64,000 nucleotides of DNA from assembly GCA_965248535.1 (NCBI GenBank), contig CBDFJR010000005.1, positions 896,001 through 960,000 of the forward strand. Reading direction: 5' to 3'. Shown here piece by piece: positions 1 through 11,858 of the stretch. A program made the position numbers and the translations under genes. Origin of the DNA: Phormidesmis sp. (lineage in GTDB: Bacteria > Cyanobacteriota > Cyanobacteriia > Leptolyngbyales > Leptolyngbyaceae). Within the stretch, counting starts at the first letter, position 1; every line of letters begins with the position of its first letter. The notes below the pieces were generated by a model. The model was not told the DNA's origin. It did not search any database and worked only from the letters and a program-made list of their open reading frames with translations.

Positions 1-957
1 GCGGTTTTTCTTGAGCACAAACGGCTCGGCTAGCCAGCGAATAATCTCTCGTCCAGCTACGGCCATGCGGTTCATGGTGCTGGCGTGAACCGATTGACCA
101 AAATATTGCCACAGCACGAGTTCAATCATTTCCCAGGCGTTGGCTGCCCCAAACTGAGCGCGCACATCGGGAGCTTCTAGAACCTTAAAGGCTTCGGCGA
201 GAGATTGGCTAGTTTCGACTCGCAAGACGTTGATATAGCCATAGGAAGAGTTCTTTAAATTGTTGCGTAAATCTAACCCGGCTCGACGCACGATCGCCAT
301 AGAGCCAAAGGTCGGATCAGTCGCATTTTGCCGAATCACTTCACTGATCCGTTTGTCGCGCCAAAACTTAGCGGTTTCCCCAATAAAGTGAGAAAAAAGC
401 CCATGAAACTCAGGATTGAGCCGAGCACCCGGGCCCGGATCGCGCCCATAGCCCAAGACGCGGGCATAGGCTCGACGACGATCGCGCTGGTGGTAGCGCA
501 AAATATTGTGCCGATCGAAGCGATAGAGTCCATAAGCGCCTTCGCCGTTAGAAATCCGCAGGGTTCCGGCTCGAAATAGCTCTTGCAGCTTGTGCATCAC
601 TTTAAACACCCCCAACAGTTCATGAATAGCGAGGTAGTAAAGGTCGGCTGTAGCCAGGATACGATCGCTGGTCACGGTGTCGTCATAATCAGCCACCCCG
701 GCCGAGACTTGGGTTTGTCCCAGATCAACAGGGGCATTGCTTCCCAAGCCAATCAGATCGGCGAGTCCGCCATCGGTCGGGGTTCCCTTGCCGTTTTGGG
801 CGGCATCAAATTTGTTCACCTGGTCATCGACCATGCGGTTGAGAACTTCGGCCAGTTGGGGGTTGGCGACGAGTTCCGGGCCTAGGGCCTCAATGGTGTT
901 TTGCAATAGTGCGGCAACGCGATCGTTGCGCTGATCATAATCTCGTGTGTTAGGCAT
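1..957 (-). CDS. Hypothetical protein of the uncharacterised operon (partial, runs off the window edge)
   Basis: Manual translation from ATG at 957 (AGGA upstream): MPNTRDYDQRNDRVAALLQ...DLYYLAIHELLGVFKVMHKLQELFRAG...; open to position 1; absent from the ORF track because no stop lies in the window. Confidence 0.85.
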   Translation of the reverse strand, partial: MPNTRDYDQRNDRVAALLQNTIEALGPELVANPQLAEVLNRMVDDQVNKFDAAQNGKGTPTDGGLADLIGLGSNAPVDLGQTQVSAGVADYDDTVTSDRILATADLYYLAIHELLGVFKVMHKLQELFRAGTLRISNGEGAYGLYRFDRHNILRYHQRDRRRAYARVLGYGRDPGPGARLNPEFHGLFSHFIGETAKFWRDKRISEVIRQNATDPTFGSMAIVRRAGLDLRNNLKNSSYGYINVLRVETSQSLAEAFKVLEAPDVRAQFGAANAWEMIELVLWQYFGQSVHASTMNRMAVAGREIIRWLAEPFVLKKNR

Positions 958-1008
958 AGCTCAATTTCTATCCTTCTAAAATCTCGATCGGTCAGAGGCT
1001 GTCAGTAG

Positions 1009-2418
1009 TTACTTAAAAGAATTAGAGAGTCCGGGGGATAGATCCGCCAGCACCTTGAGTTGGGAGAGTAACTCCCTGAGCGTTTGGTTGACCCGCTCAT
1101 AAGACAAGAGTTGCTTCAGTAATGGATTCCGCTCAAGTTGACTTCCTTCCCTCACATCGGCAGGGATACCAAACTGGATATAGTCCAAAATTAGACCAAT
1201 GACCCAAAACAGCGTGTCGGCTTGATCTGCAACAAACTCCAGCCCATATCGACCTGACGTTGCGAGGATATCAGGAGCCTCGATACTACTGAAGCGATCT
1301 ATCCAGTCAGTGAGGTCATTGACTGTGATTCTGGGCAGCACAAATTGAAGAGATAAGTCTTGACCCAAACCCAAGAACAGAGACTGATCTGGGAAATCCG
1401 ATAGGGTTGAAAATCGAGCCGACTCAGTTCGCCGTTCAGATTCGCTGAACCCGATCGAATCCATTGCTGCCATAAAGCTGGCATTGCTATCGGCAATCAC
1501 AGGCAACAAGACACTGGAACGAGAGAGCTTATCGCTGTAACTCCCTGACTCTTGCTCAGACACACTTGCTCCGAGATATTTCGTCCAAAAGCCGTTTAGC
1601 GTATCTACATAATTCTGAATCAACTCAAAAGCGGCAACTTGAGCTTCATCCTTGGTTGTCACGAGATTATCGACTAACCCAGTTCTAGTTAAAGAGCTTG
1701 TCCCTGGTTGCGATAGAGAAGCCAGCTTTGCTAGTTTGCCAAACTCTACAAGGTTTCTTTTTAGAGTGCTGAAGTAGATATCGACTCGACTGCGGCGGGG
1801 TTCATCCAATCGCCCAAACTCTTCAACTAGGCTCGTCATCTGGCTACGAACTAAAGCCCGTAGCGCTTCTACTGCATCTTGGTCAGCCGTTGGGTCAAAG
1901 GGAGCGATGCCTTCTAGCACTTGCAGAGCATCTGCCGTGATCAGGCTGGCTTGACGGTATAGATTTGCCTGTTCAACAGAGAGTTGCCCAATCAAGTCTG
2001 TACTATTGTTTCCATTGCCAGAGGTGGGAGCGTACATAGAAACAACGCTGCGGCTAGGCACGGTCACAATTTTGCCATCGGTTGCGCTGGGAAATGCGGT
2101 GTTTAGCGCACTCATGAATCCGTCAGAACCTCTTCCCGGTGACCGCCCTAATACTTGAGTCAAGGCGCGCTCCACCTGCCGTACTAGCAAATTTGTATTG
2201 CTTGTTGCACCCGTGCGAGCAATACCTTCCTCATAAGCAGTTGGCTCATTGTTTGCCTGTTGTCCCAAAAATTGAGCAATTTCAGCCAATTGTTGAGCCA
2301 CCTGATTGTCGGTATCTGGCAGCTTTTTTTGATAGAGCTTGTTAAGAAGGCGATTACGGAAGTCTTGAAGCTGTTGAAGTGTAAAGTCTTTTTGTTCTAG
2401 AAAAACTGGAAAAGCCAT
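1009..2418 (-). CDS. Hypothetical, probably helical protein (~469 aa)
   Basis: Long ORF co-oriented in the operon; GAGG precedes ATG at 2418. Confidence 0.8.
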   Translation of the reverse strand: MAFPVFLEQKDFTLQQLQDFRNRLLNKLYQKKLPDTDNQVAQQLAEIAQFLGQQANNEPTAYEEGIARTGATSNTNLLVRQVERALTQVLGRSPGRGSDGFMSALNTAFPSATDGKIVTVPSRSVVSMYAPTSGNGNNSTDLIGQLSVEQANLYRQASLITADALQVLEGIAPFDPTADQDAVEALRALVRSQMTSLVEEFGRLDEPRRSRVDIYFSTLKRNLVEFGKLAKLASLSQPGTSSLTRTGLVDNLVTTKDEAQVAAFELIQNYVDTLNGFWTKYLGASVSEQESGSYSDKLSRSSVLLPVIADSNASFMAAMDSIGFSESERRTESARFSTLSDFPDQSLFLGLGQDLSLQFVLPRITVNDLTDWIDRFSSIEAPDILATSGRYGLEFVADQADTLFWVIGLILDYIQFGIPADVREGSQLERNPLLKQLLSYERVNQTLRELLSQLKVLADLSPGLSNSFK

Positions 2419-2505
2419 TGTTATTAACCTCATCTACAGCATTAATCATTCACGAGTTGATTGGACTTATCCTACTCATTAGCCAGTCCGATCTTGGTGG
2501 TGTAC

Positions 2506-3861
2506 CTATCGCCTCCCTAAAATGCGATAGAAATTGTCGGTAATGGTTTGGGGGGTTGCAAGTTGACGGTCTAAGGCAAACCGAGCCGCACTGATCATGA
2601 ACCGAACCGGAACAGTGCCGGGATCTTGTCCGGCGGCCAGCCGTTGCCCCGCTAACTCCACCATTGCCATTTGCTTGGGCCCAAACTGCATCGCTTGAGC
2701 CAGAGATTGATTTCCAAACTGGCGGTAAGGCTGAAAAACCATTGTATCCACGACCATCTCAGCCGCCGGATAAAAGGTCTTCATAAACTCGGCAGGAATG
2801 TCGTTGGGCGTGACTTTAGGATAGAGCCGTTGCCAGACTCGCGTCAGATCCGCCGCCATTTTTTCAAACCCCATGCGGCGCAGCAAAATCAGGTTGATCA
2901 ACGTTCGCAGATAGGGAGTGGGATGCACAGACATGGCGCTAAAGCGAACGGTGCTGGACGGCGATCGCCCCACCACATCCATCAGTGATTCCACCGCAGC
3001 CGGGCCACCCAGAACCAAGGCAAACATATCAGCCATTGTTTCTTTGTGCCACAGCGCCCAGACTTGCGCCACATTGGTTGGAATGTTGCCCTCGGTGGTT
3101 AAACGCTGATAGATTCGAGCCGGAATTTCTTCCCACAAGCCTAAATCTGCCTGAAGATTGTGCGAGACTTCGTGCAAAATGCTCGACAGGGCCCACACAT
3201 TATCTAGCCGATGCTGAGGCAGCATAATCAGGGGAAAGGGATTGGGATTGCGCCGCAGCCGCATGATCGGCACCCCCCGTCGAAATGTGGCCGGACTGAA
3301 ACCACTGTTGGCATAGCTAAAGGGCAGCAAACTCGGAGTAGGTTGAGCAGTTCCTAGACCGACGTAGAGATCTTCATAGCAGTTGGCACAGATGCGATCG
3401 ACGGCCCGCAATCGTTCACCAAAGTTAGAAAGTCGCTGAATAAATAGATCGAAGTAAAAATCCCAAATGCCCTCGACATAAAGCACTCGGTTGCCGACCA
3501 CCTGCTTGCGCTCTAACAACACTTGAATGCGGCTAGAGGTTGGCTCACGGCGGGCTGCTGCTGCCGCTGCCTCGACCCAGCGCGATCGCTCAATCAACTG
3601 ACTGCGAAATTGGTCAATAAACCGATTCACCGCGTCAATATGGGCCTCACTCGGAGCCGCAACGCCTGTGCCAAACTCATCTTTGATGAATGGCCGCAGC
3701 GATTTTGCGTGACGGGTGAGATTAATCGACTGGATGTTGAGCCAGTTATCGAGCAAAAGATGTTCACCTGCGGTGGTTGCCCCTTTCATAACCTGAGCCG
3801 CAGATTTGGCATCGGCAGCAGGATGTTGCTTGGGTGGAGCAGAAGAATTTGCCATCGTCAC
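2506..3861 (-). CDS. HExxH zinc-metallopeptidase-like protein
   Basis: LHEVSH followed by WHKETMADMFA..GPA (gluzincin-like third Glu). Confidence 0.65.
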   Translation of the reverse strand: MTMANSSAPPKQHPAADAKSAAQVMKGATTAGEHLLLDNWLNIQSINLTRHAKSLRPFIKDEFGTGVAAPSEAHIDAVNRFIDQFRSQLIERSRWVEAAAAAARREPTSSRIQVLLERKQVVGNRVLYVEGIWDFYFDLFIQRLSNFGERLRAVDRICANCYEDLYVGLGTAQPTPSLLPFSYANSGFSPATFRRGVPIMRLRRNPNPFPLIMLPQHRLDNVWALSSILHEVSHNLQADLGLWEEIPARIYQRLTTEGNIPTNVAQVWALWHKETMADMFALVLGGPAAVESLMDVVGRSPSSTVRFSAMSVHPTPYLRTLINLILLRRMGFEKMAADLTRVWQRLYPKVTPNDIPAEFMKTFYPAAEMVVDTMVFQPYRQFGNQSLAQAMQFGPKQMAMVELAGQRLAAGQDPGTVPVRFMISAARFALDRQLATPQTITDNFYRILGRR

Positions 3862-3905
3862 AGCTTCCTAGTGAGGTGGGTGAAGCACAGCGGCCCTGAG
3901 AACGC

Positions 3906-5105
3906 TCAACGAAGGGCGGTAGCCCGGCTAGCACAGACGGGACACCGAGCATTAGTGGCTGCTGCTGCTCGACGGGGACTGGGCGGTGCAGTGCGCTGAC
4001 GTAGAACGGCATTTCGCACGATCGCTTGCTGCACGAGTTGCGGGTTACTCAACACTCGACGACTGGCCGATGCCATGGCTTTGACGGCCAGCGCGCCGTT
4101 GATCGGTTGACCTGCTTTAGAAGCCGCTTTGAGAGTTGCAACCGTGCGCCGTTGAATCGTGGGCACCGTTCGCAGCAGTTGCCGCCCGACGGGGCCTTGC
4201 TGGCGTAGCGTCTTCACGAGTTGACTGTTGGCTTGAGCCAAAATCGGCATCACCGGACGCAAGGCCCGCCGTCCGCCCATGATCGAAATTGTGATCGGTA
4301 AGGCTGCACCTAGCGTCGTTTCTGACTCAGCTTCGGTGGCGGCTTCTGCCGATTGCGCGGCTAGAAACTCTGTCAGGGCTGCTTCTTGAGCCGATTCAGT
4401 CTGACCCACTTCGGCTTCAGCTTCGTTGGTGCCAAAAAATTCTGCTTCCATCTGTCCGGCTTCCATTTCGCCTTCTTGCACGAGCGCGCTGGTGAGTTTG
4501 GCGGCTAGGGGTCCCGCGATCGGGCCAATGCCTGGAATCAAAGCAGCCAGTTTGCCCGCCACGATCGGAGCAAATCGCTTGGCCAAGGGAGCCGCTAGTT
4601 TGGCAACTTTGCCAATGCCTCGTTTAACCGCCCGAAACGCTTTCTTAAAGAAATATTCTCCCTCGTCTTCAGGATTGGAGTATGGATTGGAGTAGGGATT
4701 AGAGTACGAATTGCTGTAATGAGCAGCTTCGTGGCTAGTTTCCCACTCATCCTCAAACTCAGGATTGGAGTATGGATTGGAGTAATGAGCGGCTTCGTGA
4801 TTAGTCTCCCACTCATCCTCAAACTCATGGCTGGCTTGGGGATTGGAGTAATGAGCAGCTTCGTGGCTAGTTTCCCACTCATCTTCAAACTCAGGATTAG
4901 AGTAGGGATTGGAGTAATGAGCGGCTTCGTGATTAGTCTCCCACTCATCCTCAAATTCAGGATTGGCTTGGGGATTGGAGTAATGGGCAGCTTCGTGATT
5001 TGTTTCCCATTCATCCTCAAACTCAGGGTTAGAGTAGGGATTGCTGTAGTGGGCGGCTTCGTGAGAAACCGGGGCCTCAAACATTGCTTGGTGTTGCGTT
5101 GCCAT
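3906..5105 (-). CDS. Acidic-repeat protein with cationic amphipathic segments
   Basis: ATG at 5105 with GGAGAG RBS; 22-aa repeats HEAAHYSNPYSNPEFEDEWET, then FFKKAFRAVKRGIGKVAKLAAPL. Confidence 0.8.
   Translation of the reverse strand: MATQHQAMFEAPVSHEAAHYSNPYSNPEFEDEWETNHEAAHYSNPQANPEFEDEWETNHEAAHYSNPYSNPEFEDEWETSHEAAHYSNPQASHEFEDEWETNHEAAHYSNPYSNPEFEDEWETSHEAAHYSNSYSNPYSNPYSNPEDEGEYFFKKAFRAVKRGIGKVAKLAAPLAKRFAPIVAGKLAALIPGIGPIAGPLAAKLTSALVQEGEMEAGQMEAEFFGTNEAEAEVGQTESAQEAALTEFLAAQSAEAATEAESETTLGAALPITISIMGGRRALRPVMPILAQANSQLVKTLRQQGPVGRQLLRTVPTIQRRTVATLKAASKAGQPINGALAVKAMASASRRVLSNPQLVQQAIVRNAVLRQRTAPPSPRRAAAATNARCPVCASRATALR
4668..5063 (-). repeat. 66-bp coding tandem repeat, 5 full and 1 partial units
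   Basis: gcrgcttcgtg recurs at 4723, 4789, 4855, 4921, 4987 and 5053. Confidence 0.95.
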
Positions 5106-5229
5106 TTGTAAAACTCTCCGTATGAATTTAGGGGCGCAAATTGTTGAACTACGATCGTCGAAAGGTTCCAAGAAGCGTTTGGGCAACGATCGGGGCGAGA
5201 CGCTTGGCAAAGGGTGCAGTCATGGCGAC

Positions 5230-5484
5230 TTATCGGATGGTTTGAAGGACTTTTTGAACGGAGTCCAACTCCCACTCACGCGCCATTGTGAAATGAGTGT
5301 AATGCGACGCTTGCGGGATTTCCAGTTTGAATTTATGCCCCGGATGGGAATCAGGTCTAAAACTATGGGTTGCTCTGAACGTCTCCCGCTCATCTGAACG
5401 TTGCGGATAGGAATAGTGAATTGCTTCAACCGTTGCGCTTCCGATATTTACACCTTTTTTCTTACCATTCGCGTATCCGTTCAT
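5230..5484 (-). CDS. Small hypothetical protein, possible first gene of the operon
   Basis: 84-aa ORF; PQASHY...REWE echoes the downstream repeat. Confidence 0.4.
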   Translation of the reverse strand: MNGYANGKKKGVNIGSATVEAIHYSYPQRSDERETFRATHSFRPDSHPGHKFKLEIPQASHYTHFTMAREWELDSVQKVLQTIR

Positions 5485-5903
5485 TCGGATATTCTTCCAA
5501 CATAGGCGATCGAACTAATAGACTGTTCGTTCTCTATATAACCACTGCTATCTCTCAGAGTGCAGTCCCTTTTTTAAGGGTCGCTTATGTTTAGTAGCGC
5601 AAACGAGTGTCGTTCAAATAAGGGACGGGCGATCGGGCAGTTCCATGATTTCATTGAAACCAGAGGCAGGCTCAAAAAGTCAGCGTTTTTAGCCCATTTT
5701 GATTCTGACCGCCACTGCAAAGTACCCGTTCGGGCGATTGTCTTTTGGTCTTATTCATTGCACAATACAGGGTTTAGTATCAACTGAGTTCAGCTATCAG
5801 CATTCACCGAACACGGGTATCGCTAGTTTCTCTGCTCGCGCCATATTGTCTTCTTTCAGTTCGCTCTCGAAGCTTTCCGCTCCAGTAGCTTAAGGAGATA
5901 CTA

Positions 5904-6326
5904 ATGGATCTTGATAATAAAAAACCAACTCCAGAAATTCAGAATTCTGTGTCGTTAGAGCAAGAAGTTTTGCTGAACTGTTTAGTTAGAAAAGTGTCTC
6001 ATGTCGCCCCTCTAAAGCGTCTTCAAACGACTGAAGAGACGGTCAACGAAGTGATCATTGAATCAGATATTGATGGCACCCATTATTATCTAGTTCGCTG
6101 CACACCAAAGTTAGCCTGCTCGGTTAGTTTAAGTCCGCGAGAGTTAGCGATCGCTCGTCTGGTTTCTCAAGGGTTTCCCAACAAGTGTGTTGGCAGTCAA
6201 CTCAACATTAGCCCCTGGACGGTTGCAACTCATCTGCGCCGCATCTTTGGTAAGCTAAACGTCAACTCAAGAACTGCGATGGTGTCAAAACTTATGGAAA
6301 TAGGAATTCTATTGCAAAAAAGTTGA
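5904..6326 (+). CDS. LuxR-family HTH transcriptional regulator (no receiver domain)
   Basis: LSPRELAIARLVSQGFPNKCVGSQLNISPWTVATHLRRIFGKL; AAGGAG RBS. Confidence 0.9.
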   Translation: MDLDNKKPTPEIQNSVSLEQEVLLNCLVRKVSHVAPLKRLQTTEETVNEVIIESDIDGTHYYLVRCTPKLACSVSLSPRELAIARLVSQGFPNKCVGSQLNISPWTVATHLRRIFGKLNVNSRTAMVSKLMEIGILLQKS

Positions 6327-6427
6327 GCTATGTCAGCAAGTTAACTCGGTCAAGCGATCGAATAGTTTCGGACTCTTGCCCGTAGAATGGAGGAGCAAAC
6401 ACCAGCACTGCCAATTGAGCAAGCATT

Positions 6428-7491: not shown

Positions 7492-8469
7492 TTACGATTT
7501 TCTAATTATTTTGAGGCGAGTTGGAGCACCATTCTTAGCACCATCAAAGACAATCAGAACTTCGTAGTGGACTTCATTGCCTGACGTACTTTCCGCTAGT
7601 AGAGCAAGTCCCTCAGCCTTAGTATTCTCATACACGGGAATCTCTCCCAGAAGCTTGATTTGCCCAACCTTACCCGATGTGCGAGTACCCGGCAAACAGT
7701 CTTCACCATCCCAGAAATAAGCTTGGTATGAACCCGGCCCATCCCCCATTGGGCCAGCCAGAATCAAAAACCCCTCGCTAACTCGTGTAATATCCCGAAC
7801 GCCTCGCCCATCTAAGTTTATAAAAACTAAATCTGCTCCAGCTATTGGTTTGGAAAACTTGCACTTCAAGATCGGTACCCAGTTTTCCCGGAGCACTGGC
7901 CCACGGAAACCAATGTATAGCTGTTCATCACGAACTGCGATTCCTTCGATATCAACGCCGTTCTCCTTACTTGGAATGTGGCTGAAGCGATTTAGCAACG
8001 GATTGGTATCGATGATGGAACGTAAGTTAGTCTCCTCAAGTGCTGAGACATTGCCACCAGCATCTAACTGAAAGCGAAACAAACAATCGCGATCCGGTTC
8101 TGATTCTACTGCCCCCGCAGAGAACATAGTTTCCTGATTAGCTTGGTAAGACTTTTTTGGATCAATCTTCTTTCTTTTCCACGAGTGAGAACCTACCACA
8201 TAGACCGTATTATTCTCACGGGCGATCCCCTCGATATCTATCTCTTCTTTTGCGATATCTAGCTCGATACCACTGCCTACAGTTTGGTAGCTGCTGCCAT
8301 TAAGCTTTAGGATTTTCACCTTGTTCCCCTCATCAGCCCCAATGATCAGGAGCTTATCCATCACTTCAATGGCACTGATGTTCTCATTCTGATTCTTTTT
8401 ATTGTCGTCACCGTCATAAATGTTTCTGATGATGTTGACAGTCCCTAAAAATGAGATTGATGATGTCAT
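7492..8469 (-). CDS. DUF3616 family protein
   Basis: DIEG, GSHS, PSKENGVDIEG, GFRGP and KAEG motifs. Confidence 0.8.
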   Translation of the reverse strand: MTSSISFLGTVNIIRNIYDGDDNKKNQNENISAIEVMDKLLIIGADEGNKVKILKLNGSSYQTVGSGIELDIAKEEIDIEGIARENNTVYVVGSHSWKRKKIDPKKSYQANQETMFSAGAVESEPDRDCLFRFQLDAGGNVSALEETNLRSIIDTNPLLNRFSHIPSKENGVDIEGIAVRDEQLYIGFRGPVLRENWVPILKCKFSKPIAGADLVFINLDGRGVRDITRVSEGFLILAGPMGDGPGSYQAYFWDGEDCLPGTRTSGKVGQIKLLGEIPVYENTKAEGLALLAESTSGNEVHYEVLIVFDGAKNGAPTRLKIIRKS

Positions 8470-8630: not shown

Positions 8631-9212
8631 TTAAACACGGAAGCGAATATATGGCTGATAGGTATTTGGCATAGAAACACACTTTTCGCGGGTGTGACCA
8701 GGATTTTTCCATGTGGGGGCCGGAACTTGCAAACATTCTGCCCGATTGTAGGTTGCTCGCCCTGCTTCAAGCGTAGTTCCTGCTATGGACAACCCAACCT
8801 GCTTACCGTTGAACGATGCACGGATAGCAGAGAGAAGTTTGTTGACTGTCAACTCCCGCCGTAGATTGGTTGCCATTTGTGGAGATTTCACGGCTGCTCC
8901 GCTAATCACTCTCTCCAGCGAACCACTTGCAAAGTTCTTAAAGTAGGCCGATGTTGCACCTCCTTTAGAAACGGCAACATCAGTAGCGATAACGGCTGCA
9001 AGTTTCATGTACTCAGCATGACTAAATTCTGTCGAGTAGACGACCGTCCAACCGTTATTAGCAAGGCTCTGTTCCACCTCTGGTCGATTGGTCTTGTGAT
9101 AAGCGGAAGCCTTGTCCGAGAAGCCTAAAGCTCCAGTCAATGAGACTCCAGTGATTAGAGATAGGGAAGCAAGTTTTGCAACAATTGATCGGGATTGAAA
9201 AATCGTTTTCAT
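8631..9212 (-). CDS. Secreted hypothetical protein
   Basis: Signal-peptide-like N-terminus ending in ASA; GAGG RBS. Confidence 0.65.
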   Translation of the reverse strand: MKTIFQSRSIVAKLASLSLITGVSLTGALGFSDKASAYHKTNRPEVEQSLANNGWTVVYSTEFSHAEYMKLAAVIATDVAVSKGGATSAYFKNFASGSLERVISGAAVKSPQMATNLRRELTVNKLLSAIRASFNGKQVGLSIAGTTLEAGRATYNRAECLQVPAPTWKNPGHTREKCVSMPNTYQPYIRFRV

Positions 9213-9611: not shown

Positions 9612-10719
9612 ATGATTTTGATTATTCAAGAACGTGCAACACCAGAGCAAATGCGGCAAATGCTTCTGGAGTTGGGGATTTATATTAAAATTGGGCGTTG
9701 CATAATGAGGGTATGAATTAGGGTGAATTGGCATGGAATGTCCCGAATGCAACTCAACTCATATCCGTAAAAATGGAATCAAGAAAAGTAAGCAAAATCA
9801 CATTTGCGTCGATTGTGGTCGGCAATTTATTAATGTTTACGCCCCGCCCCAAGGCTATAGTGATGCGATGAAACGGGAATGTCTCAAAATGTATGTCAAC
9901 GGCATGGGTTTTCGGGGGATTGAGCGGGTTAAAGGCGTGCATCATACCACCCTGATTACTTGGGTCAGACAAGTCGGCGAACGCCTGCCGAATGCTTACT
10001 CTCCTGACAAAATACCCGAAGTCGGTGAGTTGGATGAATTGGAAACCTTCATTGGTCAAAAAAAACAAAATCTGGATCTGGACGGCCGTTGACCACTTCA
10101 GCCAAGGCATTTTAGGTTGGGTCTTAGGCGACCATAGTGCGGATACGTTCCGTCCGTTATGGACTATTGTGGCAACTTGGCAGTGCTATTTCTATGTCAC
10201 AGATGGTTGGTCAGTCTATCCCGGTTTCATTCCCGACGGTGACCAAATTATTTGCAAGACCTACATGACCCGCGTAGAAGGCGAAAATACGAGATTGAGA
10301 CACTATCTAGCTCGATTACATCGCCAGACACTTTGTTATTCCAAGTCAGCAGAAATGCTAGCATACTCGATTCGATTGTTACTTCACTACCTAAAATTTG
10401 GAGATGTCCCCGTAGCCCCGCTTGATTCATACCTTTATTCAGCAACGCCAAAATTGCAGTGGATGTTCAGCGAAAGATTTTGGCCGGAGGCGGGGAACTT
10501 CATGCAGATTGTGAGCGTGTTTTACTTAAGCATGGCAGCCACCAAGCGGCGCTTTGGGGGGCAGACTGGTATCCACTGAAGCAGGCGATCGGCTACGAAT
10601 CGATTATCAATATCCGGTCTGGTGATCACAACTGTTCCATGGAAGTCCAAGATCCTAAGTTGCGATCGCAAATGCATCAAATTATTCATGCACTGATGGG
10701 AGGTGTCGCATGGCAATAA
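9612..10719 (+). pseudogene. DUF5674 family gene interrupted by IS1
   Basis: Removing the IS and one target-site copy restores MILIIQERATPEQMRQMLLELGIYIKIAVDVQRKILAGGGELHADCE. Confidence 0.85.
9694..10449 (+). mobile_element. IS1-family insertion sequence (756 bp), insA/insB joined by a -1 frameshift
   Basis: Terminal inverted repeats GGCGTTGC...GGTATGAAT; 7-bp target duplication AAAATTG (9687-93 and 10450-56); CPEC..CVDC zinc ribbon; A8 run at 10058-65; DDE-type TDGW and EGEN motifs. Confidence 0.95.
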
Positions 10720-11081
10720 ATTGGGAAATGCTGAAGACACGTTATTTACGAGCCGACCTAAGGGTGCAGCTAGAGAGTTTGGTGCTTAATCTCACGCGGA
10801 TTCAAACACTGGCAGAGAATCATGACGGGGAAGCGGTTGCAAAGCATTTGGTGCGGGAGAGTCAGTTTTTCATTGAATGGACAGTTTCGAGCTTGGATTT
10901 GGAACAGAACATCATCATGGCAACGGATCTGGTAGATCTTCAACGTCAGCTTAGTGGATGGAAGTTGGATTGGTCAGAGTGTTGGAAAAATCTTCAGCAA
11001 CGGCAACAAATTGCACAACTGTCGCAGCAGTGGTGCGATCGCCTGGGAAATCTCCCTATGCCGTTGATCCAAGCGTTGTAA
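10710..11081 (+). CDS. Hypothetical protein coupled to the DUF5674 gene
   Basis: Overlaps the upstream stop; GGAGG RBS. Confidence 0.7.
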   Translation: MAINWEMLKTRYLRADLRVQLESLVLNLTRIQTLAENHDGEAVAKHLVRESQFFIEWTVSSLDLEQNIIMATDLVDLQRQLSGWKLDWSECWKNLQQRQQIAQLSQQWCDRLGNLPMPLIQAL

Positions 11082-11280
11082 AGATAATTACGGGAAGGAA
11101 CGAAGCGATCGCGCTTCTAGCCATCAAAAAGCGATCGCCCTCTGGATGGGAAAGGGCGATCGTCAGACGGCCCAATCGACAATTACTTCGGCAAACGGAT
11201 CGTTACTGAATAGGGTGCGTTTGCAGCAACAAGGCATCCTACAAGATCGGCGATCGCAACGTGCGATTGGCAAGATGGTT

Positions 11281-11631
11281 TCATCCATAGCCTAGTGTCA
11301 GCAAAACAGTTTCTTCGAGTTGGGCGATCGTAAATGGAGAAAGCTGTCCGAGTGGTTTGATGAGGCGAGTTTTATCCAAGACACGAAGTTGGAAGCAGAG
11401 AGCAACAGATGCTTGGGTGAGTCCGCCTTCGCCTTTAGGAATTGCTAAACAGATCGGGAGGGAGGCTCGACGCTGGTTGATGGTAAGTGGGATGGTAAGG
11501 ATGGTGCTGGAATATTGGGAAACGAGATCATTTTGGAAAATGATGACAGGTCTGATGCCTGACTGTTCTGAGCCTTGGGTAGGGTTCAGATCGGCGATCC
11601 AAATTTCACCCCGAAGTATCCGTTGACTCAT
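11281..11631 (-). CDS. PemK/MazF-family toxin
   Basis: RGEIWIADLNPTQGSEQSGIRPVII. Confidence 0.92.
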   Translation of the reverse strand: MSQRILRGEIWIADLNPTQGSEQSGIRPVIIFQNDLVSQYSSTILTIPLTINQRRASLPICLAIPKGEGGLTQASVALCFQLRVLDKTRLIKPLGQLSPFTIAQLEETVLLTLGYG

Positions 11632-11858
11632 GATTCGTCTTCGTGAGCGAGGAGGATGGCGTAGTCACTCATGCCCGCTTCAGACATGGCTCGATCGTCG
11701 TCGGCAAATTCAGCCAGGGCAGCGAATTGATTTGGCTCGATCGATCGCGTAGCATGATCGCGAAATTGGAGGAAGGCGATGAAATCGGCAACTTGTTGAA
11801 GTTGATGGCTGTTGAGACGATCGATATCTTGTTTGAGGTGTTCGCGAGTGAGTTGCAT
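11628..11858 (-). CDS. Putative antitoxin (DUF2281-like)
   Basis: Small acidic ORF with ATGA overlap onto the toxin gene. Confidence 0.7.
   Translation of the reverse strand: MQLTREHLKQDIDRLNSHQLQQVADFIAFLQFRDHATRSIEPNQFAALAEFADDDRAMSEAGMSDYAILLAHEDES

Follow-up and report, generated by a model that had tools for sequence, protein, structure and literature searches.

The window analysed here is a stretch of 64,000 nt from the genome of a Phormidesmis sp. (contig CBDFJR010000005.1, hereafter C5, positions 896001-960000). At its left edge lies an operon on the minus strand, which continues beyond position 1 and in which a divergent LuxR gene is followed by a broken A1 gene, A2, B, C, D, three variable genes (slot genes), an M20 dipeptidase gene and an amidohydrolase gene. 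We observe a core of the order A(A)-B-(E)-C-D, polymorphism of the slot behind D, a leader common to the slot proteins and A, a conserved metal-binding motif, a masked amphipathic helix and purifying selection. The system is real, widespread and, as far as we searched, apparently undescribed. We give about even chances to the view that the operon, under the control of LuxR, packages polymorphic antibacterial effectors, which are matured by B and released without Sec. We favour this view because of the fixed synteny, the patchy presence, the polymorphism of the slot, the tagged slot proteins without signal peptides, the fusions to DUF4157 (a toxin-associated domain in the excerpted text of PMC11297309), the HExxH..E motif of B and the amphipathic helix of A, and also because a distant subtype keeps D together with a subtilase in place of B and with peptidoglycan-directed neighbours.

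Order, spread and regulation of the operon

An earlier, sequence-only reading of the window had named beforehand, as an outcome speaking against an undescribed system, that the homologues do not co-occur or belong to a known pathway; we find that they co-occur in fixed order across phyla and map to no family in the libraries scanned. A relative of D is encoded in 337 of 385 pattern-matching stretches of GTDB contigs. The best 80 of these 337 loci and 12 cyanobacterial loci were taken for the synteny sample (92 loci besides the present one), and most of the 80 are from Acidobacteria. The fetched loci also come from Actinobacteria, Planctomycetes, Verrucomicrobia, Deinococcota, Proteobacteria, Binatia, Chloroflexi and others; the first six of these together with Cyanobacteria and Acidobacteria make at least eight phyla, as named in the records. 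The order A-B-C-D is kept in 69 of the 74 loci with at least 7.5 kb of upstream sequence, and therefore the arrangement is more than chance; two A genes are present in 65 of the 74. The five exceptions are L018 and L023 (A-like genes that are diverged by eye), L019 (type II), and L025 and L080, which are apparently frameshift-ridden. Gene E (186 aa) is usually found between B and C elsewhere and is absent at this locus. Among the 73 loci with at least 4.5 kb of downstream sequence, an M20 dipeptidase gene follows D in 58, an amidohydrolase gene in 52, and either one in 67. Ratios of non-synonymous to synonymous substitution rates (dN/dS) of 0.04-0.15 for A2, B, C, D, LuxR, the M20 dipeptidase and the amidohydrolase indicate purifying selection.

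Homologues of D number 3,064 among 8,000 scored candidates (764 representatives at 50% clustering), and close named ones are found in Nostoc, Phormidesmis, Stenomitos and Alkalinema. The presence is patchy and comprises several subtypes: D was found in 21 and B in 17 of 90 genomes of the host family, and D in 7 of 301 genomes of a phylum-wide draw. Five plasmid records carry D, and it was not found in the 50,697 phage records searched.

A LuxR gene is present in 61 of the 64 loci with both flanks. The local protein had been described as a divergent LuxR without receiver, and indeed GerE is the only Pfam family above the cut-off, with no receiver domain. Upstream of the first A gene an imperfect palindrome is significant (p ≤ 0.01 versus shuffles) in 51 of 68 regions, and in 31 of these 51 it lies 59-64 nt ahead of the start of the open reading frame (ORF). 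A genome-wide scan for the operator listed 142 sites above 8 bits, without the local palindrome, and gave no usable regulon. In some cyanobacterial relatives (L012, L013, L014, L129, L131) the divergent LuxR gene is replaced by a pair on the same strand, which encodes a GerE protein of 250 aa and a second protein of 129 aa with, by eye, a receiver-like appearance.

The variable slot and its N-terminal leader

Reading of the sequence left of position 1 completed D (385 aa) and added five more operon genes, among them the three slot genes. Across the loci, 56 ORFs on the same strand fill the slot, which reaches from D to the gene for the dipeptidase or the amidohydrolase; removal of 10 likely passengers or fragments left 46 genes from 31 loci, which fall into 28 sequence clusters. 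A domain scan of 40 downstream genes revealed 14 that are peptidoglycan-related (PG_binding_1, CHAP, VanY, M15, OmpA), 8 with protease domains (trypsin, M35, S8) and 17 without match; further slot loci add Amidase_2 and DUF2272. None of the 56 slot ORFs has a signal-like hydrophobic N-terminus, compared to 50 of 558 background ORFs, while 29 of the 56 have an acidic N-terminus, compared to 62 of 558 (kin loci in the sample are not independent). For 19 of the 24 slot ORFs listed, less than 100 nt separate the ORF from the next gene, which mostly leaves no room for an immunity gene.

The domain of slot gene 2 we take to be alpha/beta-hydrolase-like, going by its HSGG motif. For residues 215-381 of the slot-3 protein 139 homologues were found, and 39 of the 120 listed carry PF13699 (DUF4157; hand count), a domain that marks toxins of extracellular contractile injection systems (eCIS) in the excerpted text of PMC11297309. 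An Atlas search gave DUF3289, DUF6402 and, in 11% of one cluster, Colicin_M as leads for slot gene 3; the likeness to colicin M had no support from Pfam or PDB and remains a lead. Many stand-alone homologues of the slot-3 domain (P0285-P0327) start with MYL-x-E-x-P, perhaps a loading tag of another system.

These domains bear on a first alternative, regulated self-lysis with recycling, in which B would free the A helix as a holin-like peptide, the slot enzymes would digest the wall and contents of the producer itself, the catabolic enzymes would feed the survivors, and C and D would restrain the enzymes up to the trigger. Slot proteins without signal peptides, the lack of immunity genes, the prevalence of peptidoglycan-related domains in the slot and the catabolic enzymes at the end of the operon (67 of 73 loci) all fit such a scheme. 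However, self-lysis needs one suitable hydrolase, not 28 swappable kinds or six in a row as in genome G391, and the domain shared with DUF4157 proteins as well as the Ig and collagen add-ons on C point outwards. We therefore consider self-lysis unlikely.

The slot proteins share a leader with A. In this clade it reads M-x(4-6)-WLFEAP, SNPY or E-x-EWE often comes next, and A2 starts much alike (M..QWLFEAP). An exact-motif scan found WLFEAP in the host genome only at this locus. A leader hidden Markov model (HMM), trained on 11 slot genes from five other genomes with the local genes excluded, picks exactly the three local slot genes among 24,665 frames (E 2e-4 or better; next 0.56). With a start-anchored leader matrix built from these 11 genes, the three slot genes and A2 rank 1-4 of 19,805 Met starts (26, 24, 20 and 15 bits; next 8). 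A survey profile of 14 rows, which include the local genes, has 22 matches in 10 of the 90 family genomes, and five of these 10 genomes had not contributed to the training set. Each of the 22 adjoins B or D, and there is none in the 67 genomes with neither. Six leader-tagged genes stand in a row in G391. The slot leader of Acidobacteria differs (ELELEAELEEL-type) and their A proteins differ likewise, so that, judged by eye, leader and core seem to change together. An exact-motif scan of the DNA of 41 genomes matched 9 times, in 4 genomes that all have D, but counts little because the reversed control matched more often (12 matches in 10 genomes). Two leader-like motifs in G016 (C52:2966, C103:1015) lie away from the operon and are either orphan cargo or chance.

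From these patterns we infer that the leader is a candidate non-Sec loading signal at the N-terminus. Short terminal tags on several co-encoded proteins are known from cargo loading of encapsulins and microcompartments. The operon resembles them in its short tag on co-encoded proteins; here, however, no shell family was found, and the cargo is wall-directed instead of metabolic.

The tagged, signal-less slot proteins also invite comparison with eCIS of the PVC/Afp type, which share with the operon effectors without signal peptides that carry an N-terminal signal, a zinc-peptidase-type domain, variable receptor-binding modules and an effector domain (excerpted text of PMC11297309). In contrast to eCIS, no sheath, tube or baseplate family was found among the locus proteins (Pfam, PHROGs), and the core is helical. 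According to the same excerpt, eCIS cargo signals are N-terminal, slightly positive and without conserved sequence, unlike the conserved and often acidic leader described here. The host genome does contain two eCIS-like loci (near 520-523 kb on contig C2 and near 2,231-2,253 kb on C5), and PF06841 (tube) and PF04984 match only there. The operon could thus be an eCIS satellite, its leader being the loading signal for an injection system encoded elsewhere and its core proteins adaptors. N-terminal signals and DUF4157 on eCIS cargo (PMC11297309, in the part consulted) and the DUF4157 fusions of the slot-3 domain agree with this. However, PF06841 is as common in genomes without D (41 of 69) as in those with D (13 of 21; hand count, the absences being weakened by incomplete genomes). 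It was not found in G012, which is 99% complete and has leader-tagged genes, and among five acidobacterial genomes that carry slot genes, of unstated completeness, it was found in one. Considering also the different character of the signals, a satellite is the least probable of the alternatives that we weighed.

Polymorphic toxins resemble the operon in having a constant N-terminal trafficking part, swappable C-terminal domains, a processing peptidase and a patchy spread, as far as the excerpted survey PMC3482391 describes them. They differ in that here the slot genes are not followed by an immunity gene, and a leader of 15-45 aa, in common with a core protein, takes the place of the trafficking part; no such system is named in the part of PMC3482391 that was consulted. 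In the open-licence literature of PMC and bioRxiv we found no description of the system, and a nameless system or a listing in a supplement could be missed by this search. The operon resembles eCIS and polymorphic toxins in its genomic logic and fails both on their defining parts.

Core proteins and proposed course of action

In line with the sequence-only reading, which could assign none of its genes, the core proteins match no characterised family: they had no match in Pfam, NCBIfam, PADLOC or PDB, and PHROGs gave only a weak low-complexity match on A2. The PADLOC 2023 defence models recognised 0 families among 8 locus proteins. Sequence and profile searches of PDB with A, B, C, D, E and the slot-3 domain returned only designed helical repeats, coiled coils and non-significant rows. 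Median hydrophobicity peaks lie below the usual transmembrane level in all five families.

A2 consists of the N-terminal leader, acidic repeats of 22 aa (66-nt unit, 5.6 copies, 4696-5064), a cationic amphipathic helix-hinge-helix, a second acidic linker and an Arg-rich helical C-domain. In the A family the median Glu content is 12%, and the median net charge is −32 for the front and +24 for the last 120 residues. The 60-aa cationic segment of A2 (residues 151-210, charge +11) sits between Glu-rich stretches and has a hydrophobic moment of 0.81 (p = 0.003); p was below 0.05 in 31 of 34 homologues, which were chosen from 56 with the cationic type favoured. From the helix to the C-terminus A2 is under strong purifying selection (dN/dS 0.066). 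Charge layout and amphipathic segment thus bear out the acidic/cationic, precursor-like character that had been claimed for A. Longer fusions of the C-part of A were not found among the scored candidates, which is weak evidence.

The composition of A could also indicate a storage or dormancy structure, with the Glu-rich A as a nitrogen/glutamate or cation-binding reserve or as a coat, on which B, the dipeptidase and the amidohydrolase would draw, while the slot enzymes would remodel the wall at germination or regrowth. Opposite charges at the two ends of a protein with a median of 12% Glu and the collagen modules would suit this, as would a gene near 28 loci (e.g., L041:2229-3644, directly upstream of the first A gene) that we take to be glutamate decarboxylase-like. 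However, this gene is almost wholly acidobacterial and lies upstream of the operator box, and the hosts, which we assume to be mostly non-sporulating, count against storage as well. The patchy spread and the turnover of the slot are better explained by conflict, and the conserved cationic helix is left unexplained. A storage function is therefore, in our view, distinctly improbable.

In B the residues H228, E229, H232, E272 and D276 are invariant in 37 of 37 aligned homologues, in line with the zinc-peptidase-like motif noted before. HExxH with a distal Glu is the pattern of gluzincin metallopeptidases, and B is thus a putative zinc metallopeptidase of this pattern. It differs from gluzincins in that it matches no profile or fold of a known family and has an N-terminal three-helix bundle. 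The B model (predicted local distance difference test, pLDDT, 82) comprises this bundle and a helical catalytic-like domain, with the invariant residues on predicted helices. The best fold match (Z 9.2, root-mean-square deviation 3.5, 113 aligned) covers the N-terminal bundle only, and no zincin was found in these searches, which probed mainly the bundle well.

Invariant HExxH and the acidic-cationic layout of A would both be expected from a pathway for a bacteriocin or a ribosomally synthesised and post-translationally modified peptide (RiPP) and nothing else, with A as precursor, B as leader peptidase, C and D as chaperones or immunity proteins and the slot genes as passengers. In contrast to bacteriocin and RiPP clusters, no exporter, transporter or modifying enzyme family was found in the locus (Pfam, NCBIfam, all 11 locus proteins). 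Furthermore, the slot genes bear the leader of A, which passengers would not, and A is strongly constrained from the helix to the C-terminus (dN/dS as above). The probability of such a pathway is very low. The sequence-only reading had left the choice between a proteolytically matured peptide and a particle or conflict module; the leader-tagged variable genes left of the window tip the balance towards the latter and away from a matured peptide by itself.

The D model is all-helical (pLDDT 80) and had no fold match in PDB or BFVD, HK97 or jelly-roll shell proteins included; the best Z was 6.8, for 57 residues in the N-terminal hairpin. Foldseek returned no fold match for the models of D or B; rows resembling ClyA were obtained for D with E about 0.9 and a template modelling score of 0.17 only. 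An Atlas search with a D homologue gave no usable match. C, or the gene directly ahead of it, carries Ig-like, prealbumin, TIG or collagen modules in 10 of 37 type I proteins scanned, several of them under the curated cut-off. Profile comparison detected no homology between C and either D or E, and a prediction of the C-D complex (score 0.20) bears neither way. Absent fold matches do not prove new folds; B, C and D possibly have such folds.

Under the reading that we prefer, the LuxR protein would bind the upstream palindrome and turn the operon on. C, D and the Arg-rich domain of A would form a cytoplasmic body or particle, and the variable Ig and collagen add-ons of C might serve target binding. 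Leaders would recruit the slot proteins and may also hold them silent. The putative zinc peptidase B would cleave A and the leaders where acidic and hydrophobic stretches meet and so free the cationic helix and the effector domains. The freed helix could then breach the producer's membrane for release, the target's membrane for entry, or the two of them. Neighbouring bacteria would be attacked by the slot domains, among them peptidoglycan hydrolases and proteases. M20 dipeptidase and amidohydrolase might recycle the severed acidic peptides or the spoils.

Several points weigh against this reading. Particle, cleavage, binding and killing are inferred, and none of them has been seen. Neither an ATPase nor a transporter was found in the locus, and export is thus unexplained. 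Fold searches of D and B revealed no likeness of the core to proteins known from shells, tubes or pores. No immunity genes directly follow the local slot genes (gaps of 13, 57 and 5 nt to the next gene), which is unusual for kin-directed weapons. A kept slot gene was found in only 31 of 93 loci, some of which are cut by contig ends; since many loci show an empty slot, the core can exist without neighbouring effectors. A strongly acidic start is absent from 27 of the 56 slot ORFs, the leader HMM does not list A2, and the leader is clade-specific: of the 23 genomes with B or D, 13 have no match, and most of these 13 belong to other subtypes. The kin loci are not independent, and most of the 80 fetched loci are acidobacterial. 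Because A1 is broken and E is missing, the local copy may be impaired. Finally, the likeness of the A2 segment to PDB entries is non-significant: cecropin (6iha) at E 0.1, a "structural polyprotein" (9gg2, residues 449-474), which we take to be a birnavirus protein, at E 0.31, and LL-37 (2k6o) at E 3.5. Like the precursors of cationic lytic peptides (cecropin, LL-37), A2 has an amphipathic helix-hinge-helix masked by acidic flanks, but here the segment is internal, with a conserved domain of about 190 aa behind it. With E-values of 0.1-3.5 the likeness is one of pattern, not of homology; a birnavirus capsid-derived peptide presumably resembles the masked-helix pattern as well.

Known delivery routes for effectors without signal peptides mostly derive from phage tails or from membrane secretion machines. 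The locus has the genomic marks of a delivery system (constant core, tagged swappable cargo, processing peptidase) and none of the known machine parts, and the system is spread over abundant, little-studied environmental phyla. Only tentatively do we suggest a new bacterial delivery particle made of helical proteins, unrelated to phage tails or capsids, with swappable effectors loaded by leaders and a lytic helix unmasked by a protease as in non-enveloped viruses, which would occur in hundreds of environmental bacteria and have a second, subtilase subtype. If this is true, the locus would extend the known mechanisms of delivery or lysis by one, provide a short loading tag and a stock of new antibacterial domains directed at the wall, and possibly include new folds in B, C and D.

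Subtypes, coordinates and neighbouring genes

In subtype II an S8 subtilase replaces B beside a longer D (about 510-960 aa), as seen in the loci that were read: L019 (G009), L104:11515-21686, L105:6269-22426 and L134 (G360), with Tolypothrix and Burkholderia plasmids among them. These loci add several paralogous proteins of no known family, small genes and sometimes a second short D, and their neighbours are peptidoglycan-binding, amidase or EndoU genes. We had assumed that they hold DUF2589 proteins, which Pfam did not confirm. Because subtype II keeps D with a subtilase in the place of B, D plus protease looks like the deepest shared unit of the system, and subtype II is possibly a sister system. 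A third subtype (L018, L023, L133) has two to three Asp-rich A-like genes, a diverged B, a gene for 630-660 aa at the position of C, and D, together with a 290-aa protein of no known family, a DUF4438 gene and LuxR; at one locus a collagen-repeat gene precedes D.

The coordinates of the local features are collected in Table 1. All minus-strand ORFs named in the sequence-only reading exist, with purine-rich stretches resembling ribosome binding sites (RBS) ahead of 5484, 5105, 3855, 2418 and 957, but two of them had to be revised. The start of B is more likely ATG 3855 than GTG 3861, because of the RBS spacing and the start position in a homologue. By its sequence, the 84-aa ORF at 5484 is no working gene but what is left of the first A paralogue, now a pseudogene. 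In comparison with the intact 296-aa gene of genome G003, its reading frame ends prematurely, at a stop near 5232, and about 580 nt are missing; its dN/dS of 0.60 indicates relaxed selection. Single contigs of runs X1 and X3 (one possibly the source sample) span positions 4926-6400 without gap, and an assembly slip is therefore unlikely. In G003 itself, D is frameshift-split though A1 is intact (L015, G003:C6:47161-48311), either by mutation or by sequencing error.

Table 1. Features of the operon; plain numbers are positions in the window, those with C5 are positions on the contig.
Feature	Position	Strand	Evidence
LuxR/GerE-type regulator, receiver-less, 140 aa	5904..6326	+	Pfam GerE E 7e-17, residues 75-128; dN/dS 0.15
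Candidate LuxR operator, weak imperfect palindrome	5560..5585	-	p = 0.045 here; position kept in G003
A1 remnant, pseudogene: 84-aa ORF 5484-5230 and untranslated remains	5125..5484	-	Stop and deletion versus G003; dN/dS 0.60
A2, 399 aa	3906..5105	-	Leader ranks 4th of 19,805 Met starts; dN/dS 0.056
Cationic 60-aa segment inside A2, candidate membrane-active peptide	4476..4655	-	Net charge +11, without acidic residues
B, 449 aa, putative zinc metallopeptidase	2506..3855	-	Invariant HExxH..E; dN/dS 0.049
C, 469 aa, conserved core protein	1009..2418	-	No family match; dN/dS 0.14
D, 385 aa, all-helical (predicted) marker protein of the system	1..957, plus 200 nt left to C5:895800	-	dN/dS 0.043
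Slot gene 1, 386 aa: leader, unassigned domain, VanY	C5:894577-895737	-	VanY E 3e-23
Slot gene 2, 328 aa: doubled leader, domain with HSGG motif	C5:893581-894567	-	
Slot gene 3, 381 aa: leader, helical domain, domain common to DUF4157 proteins	C5:892382-893527	-	
M20 dipeptidase	C5:890986-892380	-	NCBIfam PRK08201, 519 bits (cut-off 441)
Amidohydro_2 enzyme	C5:890219-890989	-	Amidohydro_2 E 3e-15

Further into the window, a DUF3616 protein is encoded at 7492-8469 (E 8.5e-44) and adjoins a secreted-looking 193-aa protein of no known family (8631-9212). What we take, from its motif, to be an IS1-like transposase in two frames follows at 9733-10579, and after it come small toxin-antitoxin-like genes (10710-11858). 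Left of the window (L001:6486-8491) a gene for an AAA_21 ATPase precedes one for a small protein with Cys/His motifs, a pair that presumably resembles the ATPase-nuclease pairs of the Septu or retron type. Beside it stands a seemingly frameshifted gene (4691-6422) for what we assume to be a HerA-like ATPase.

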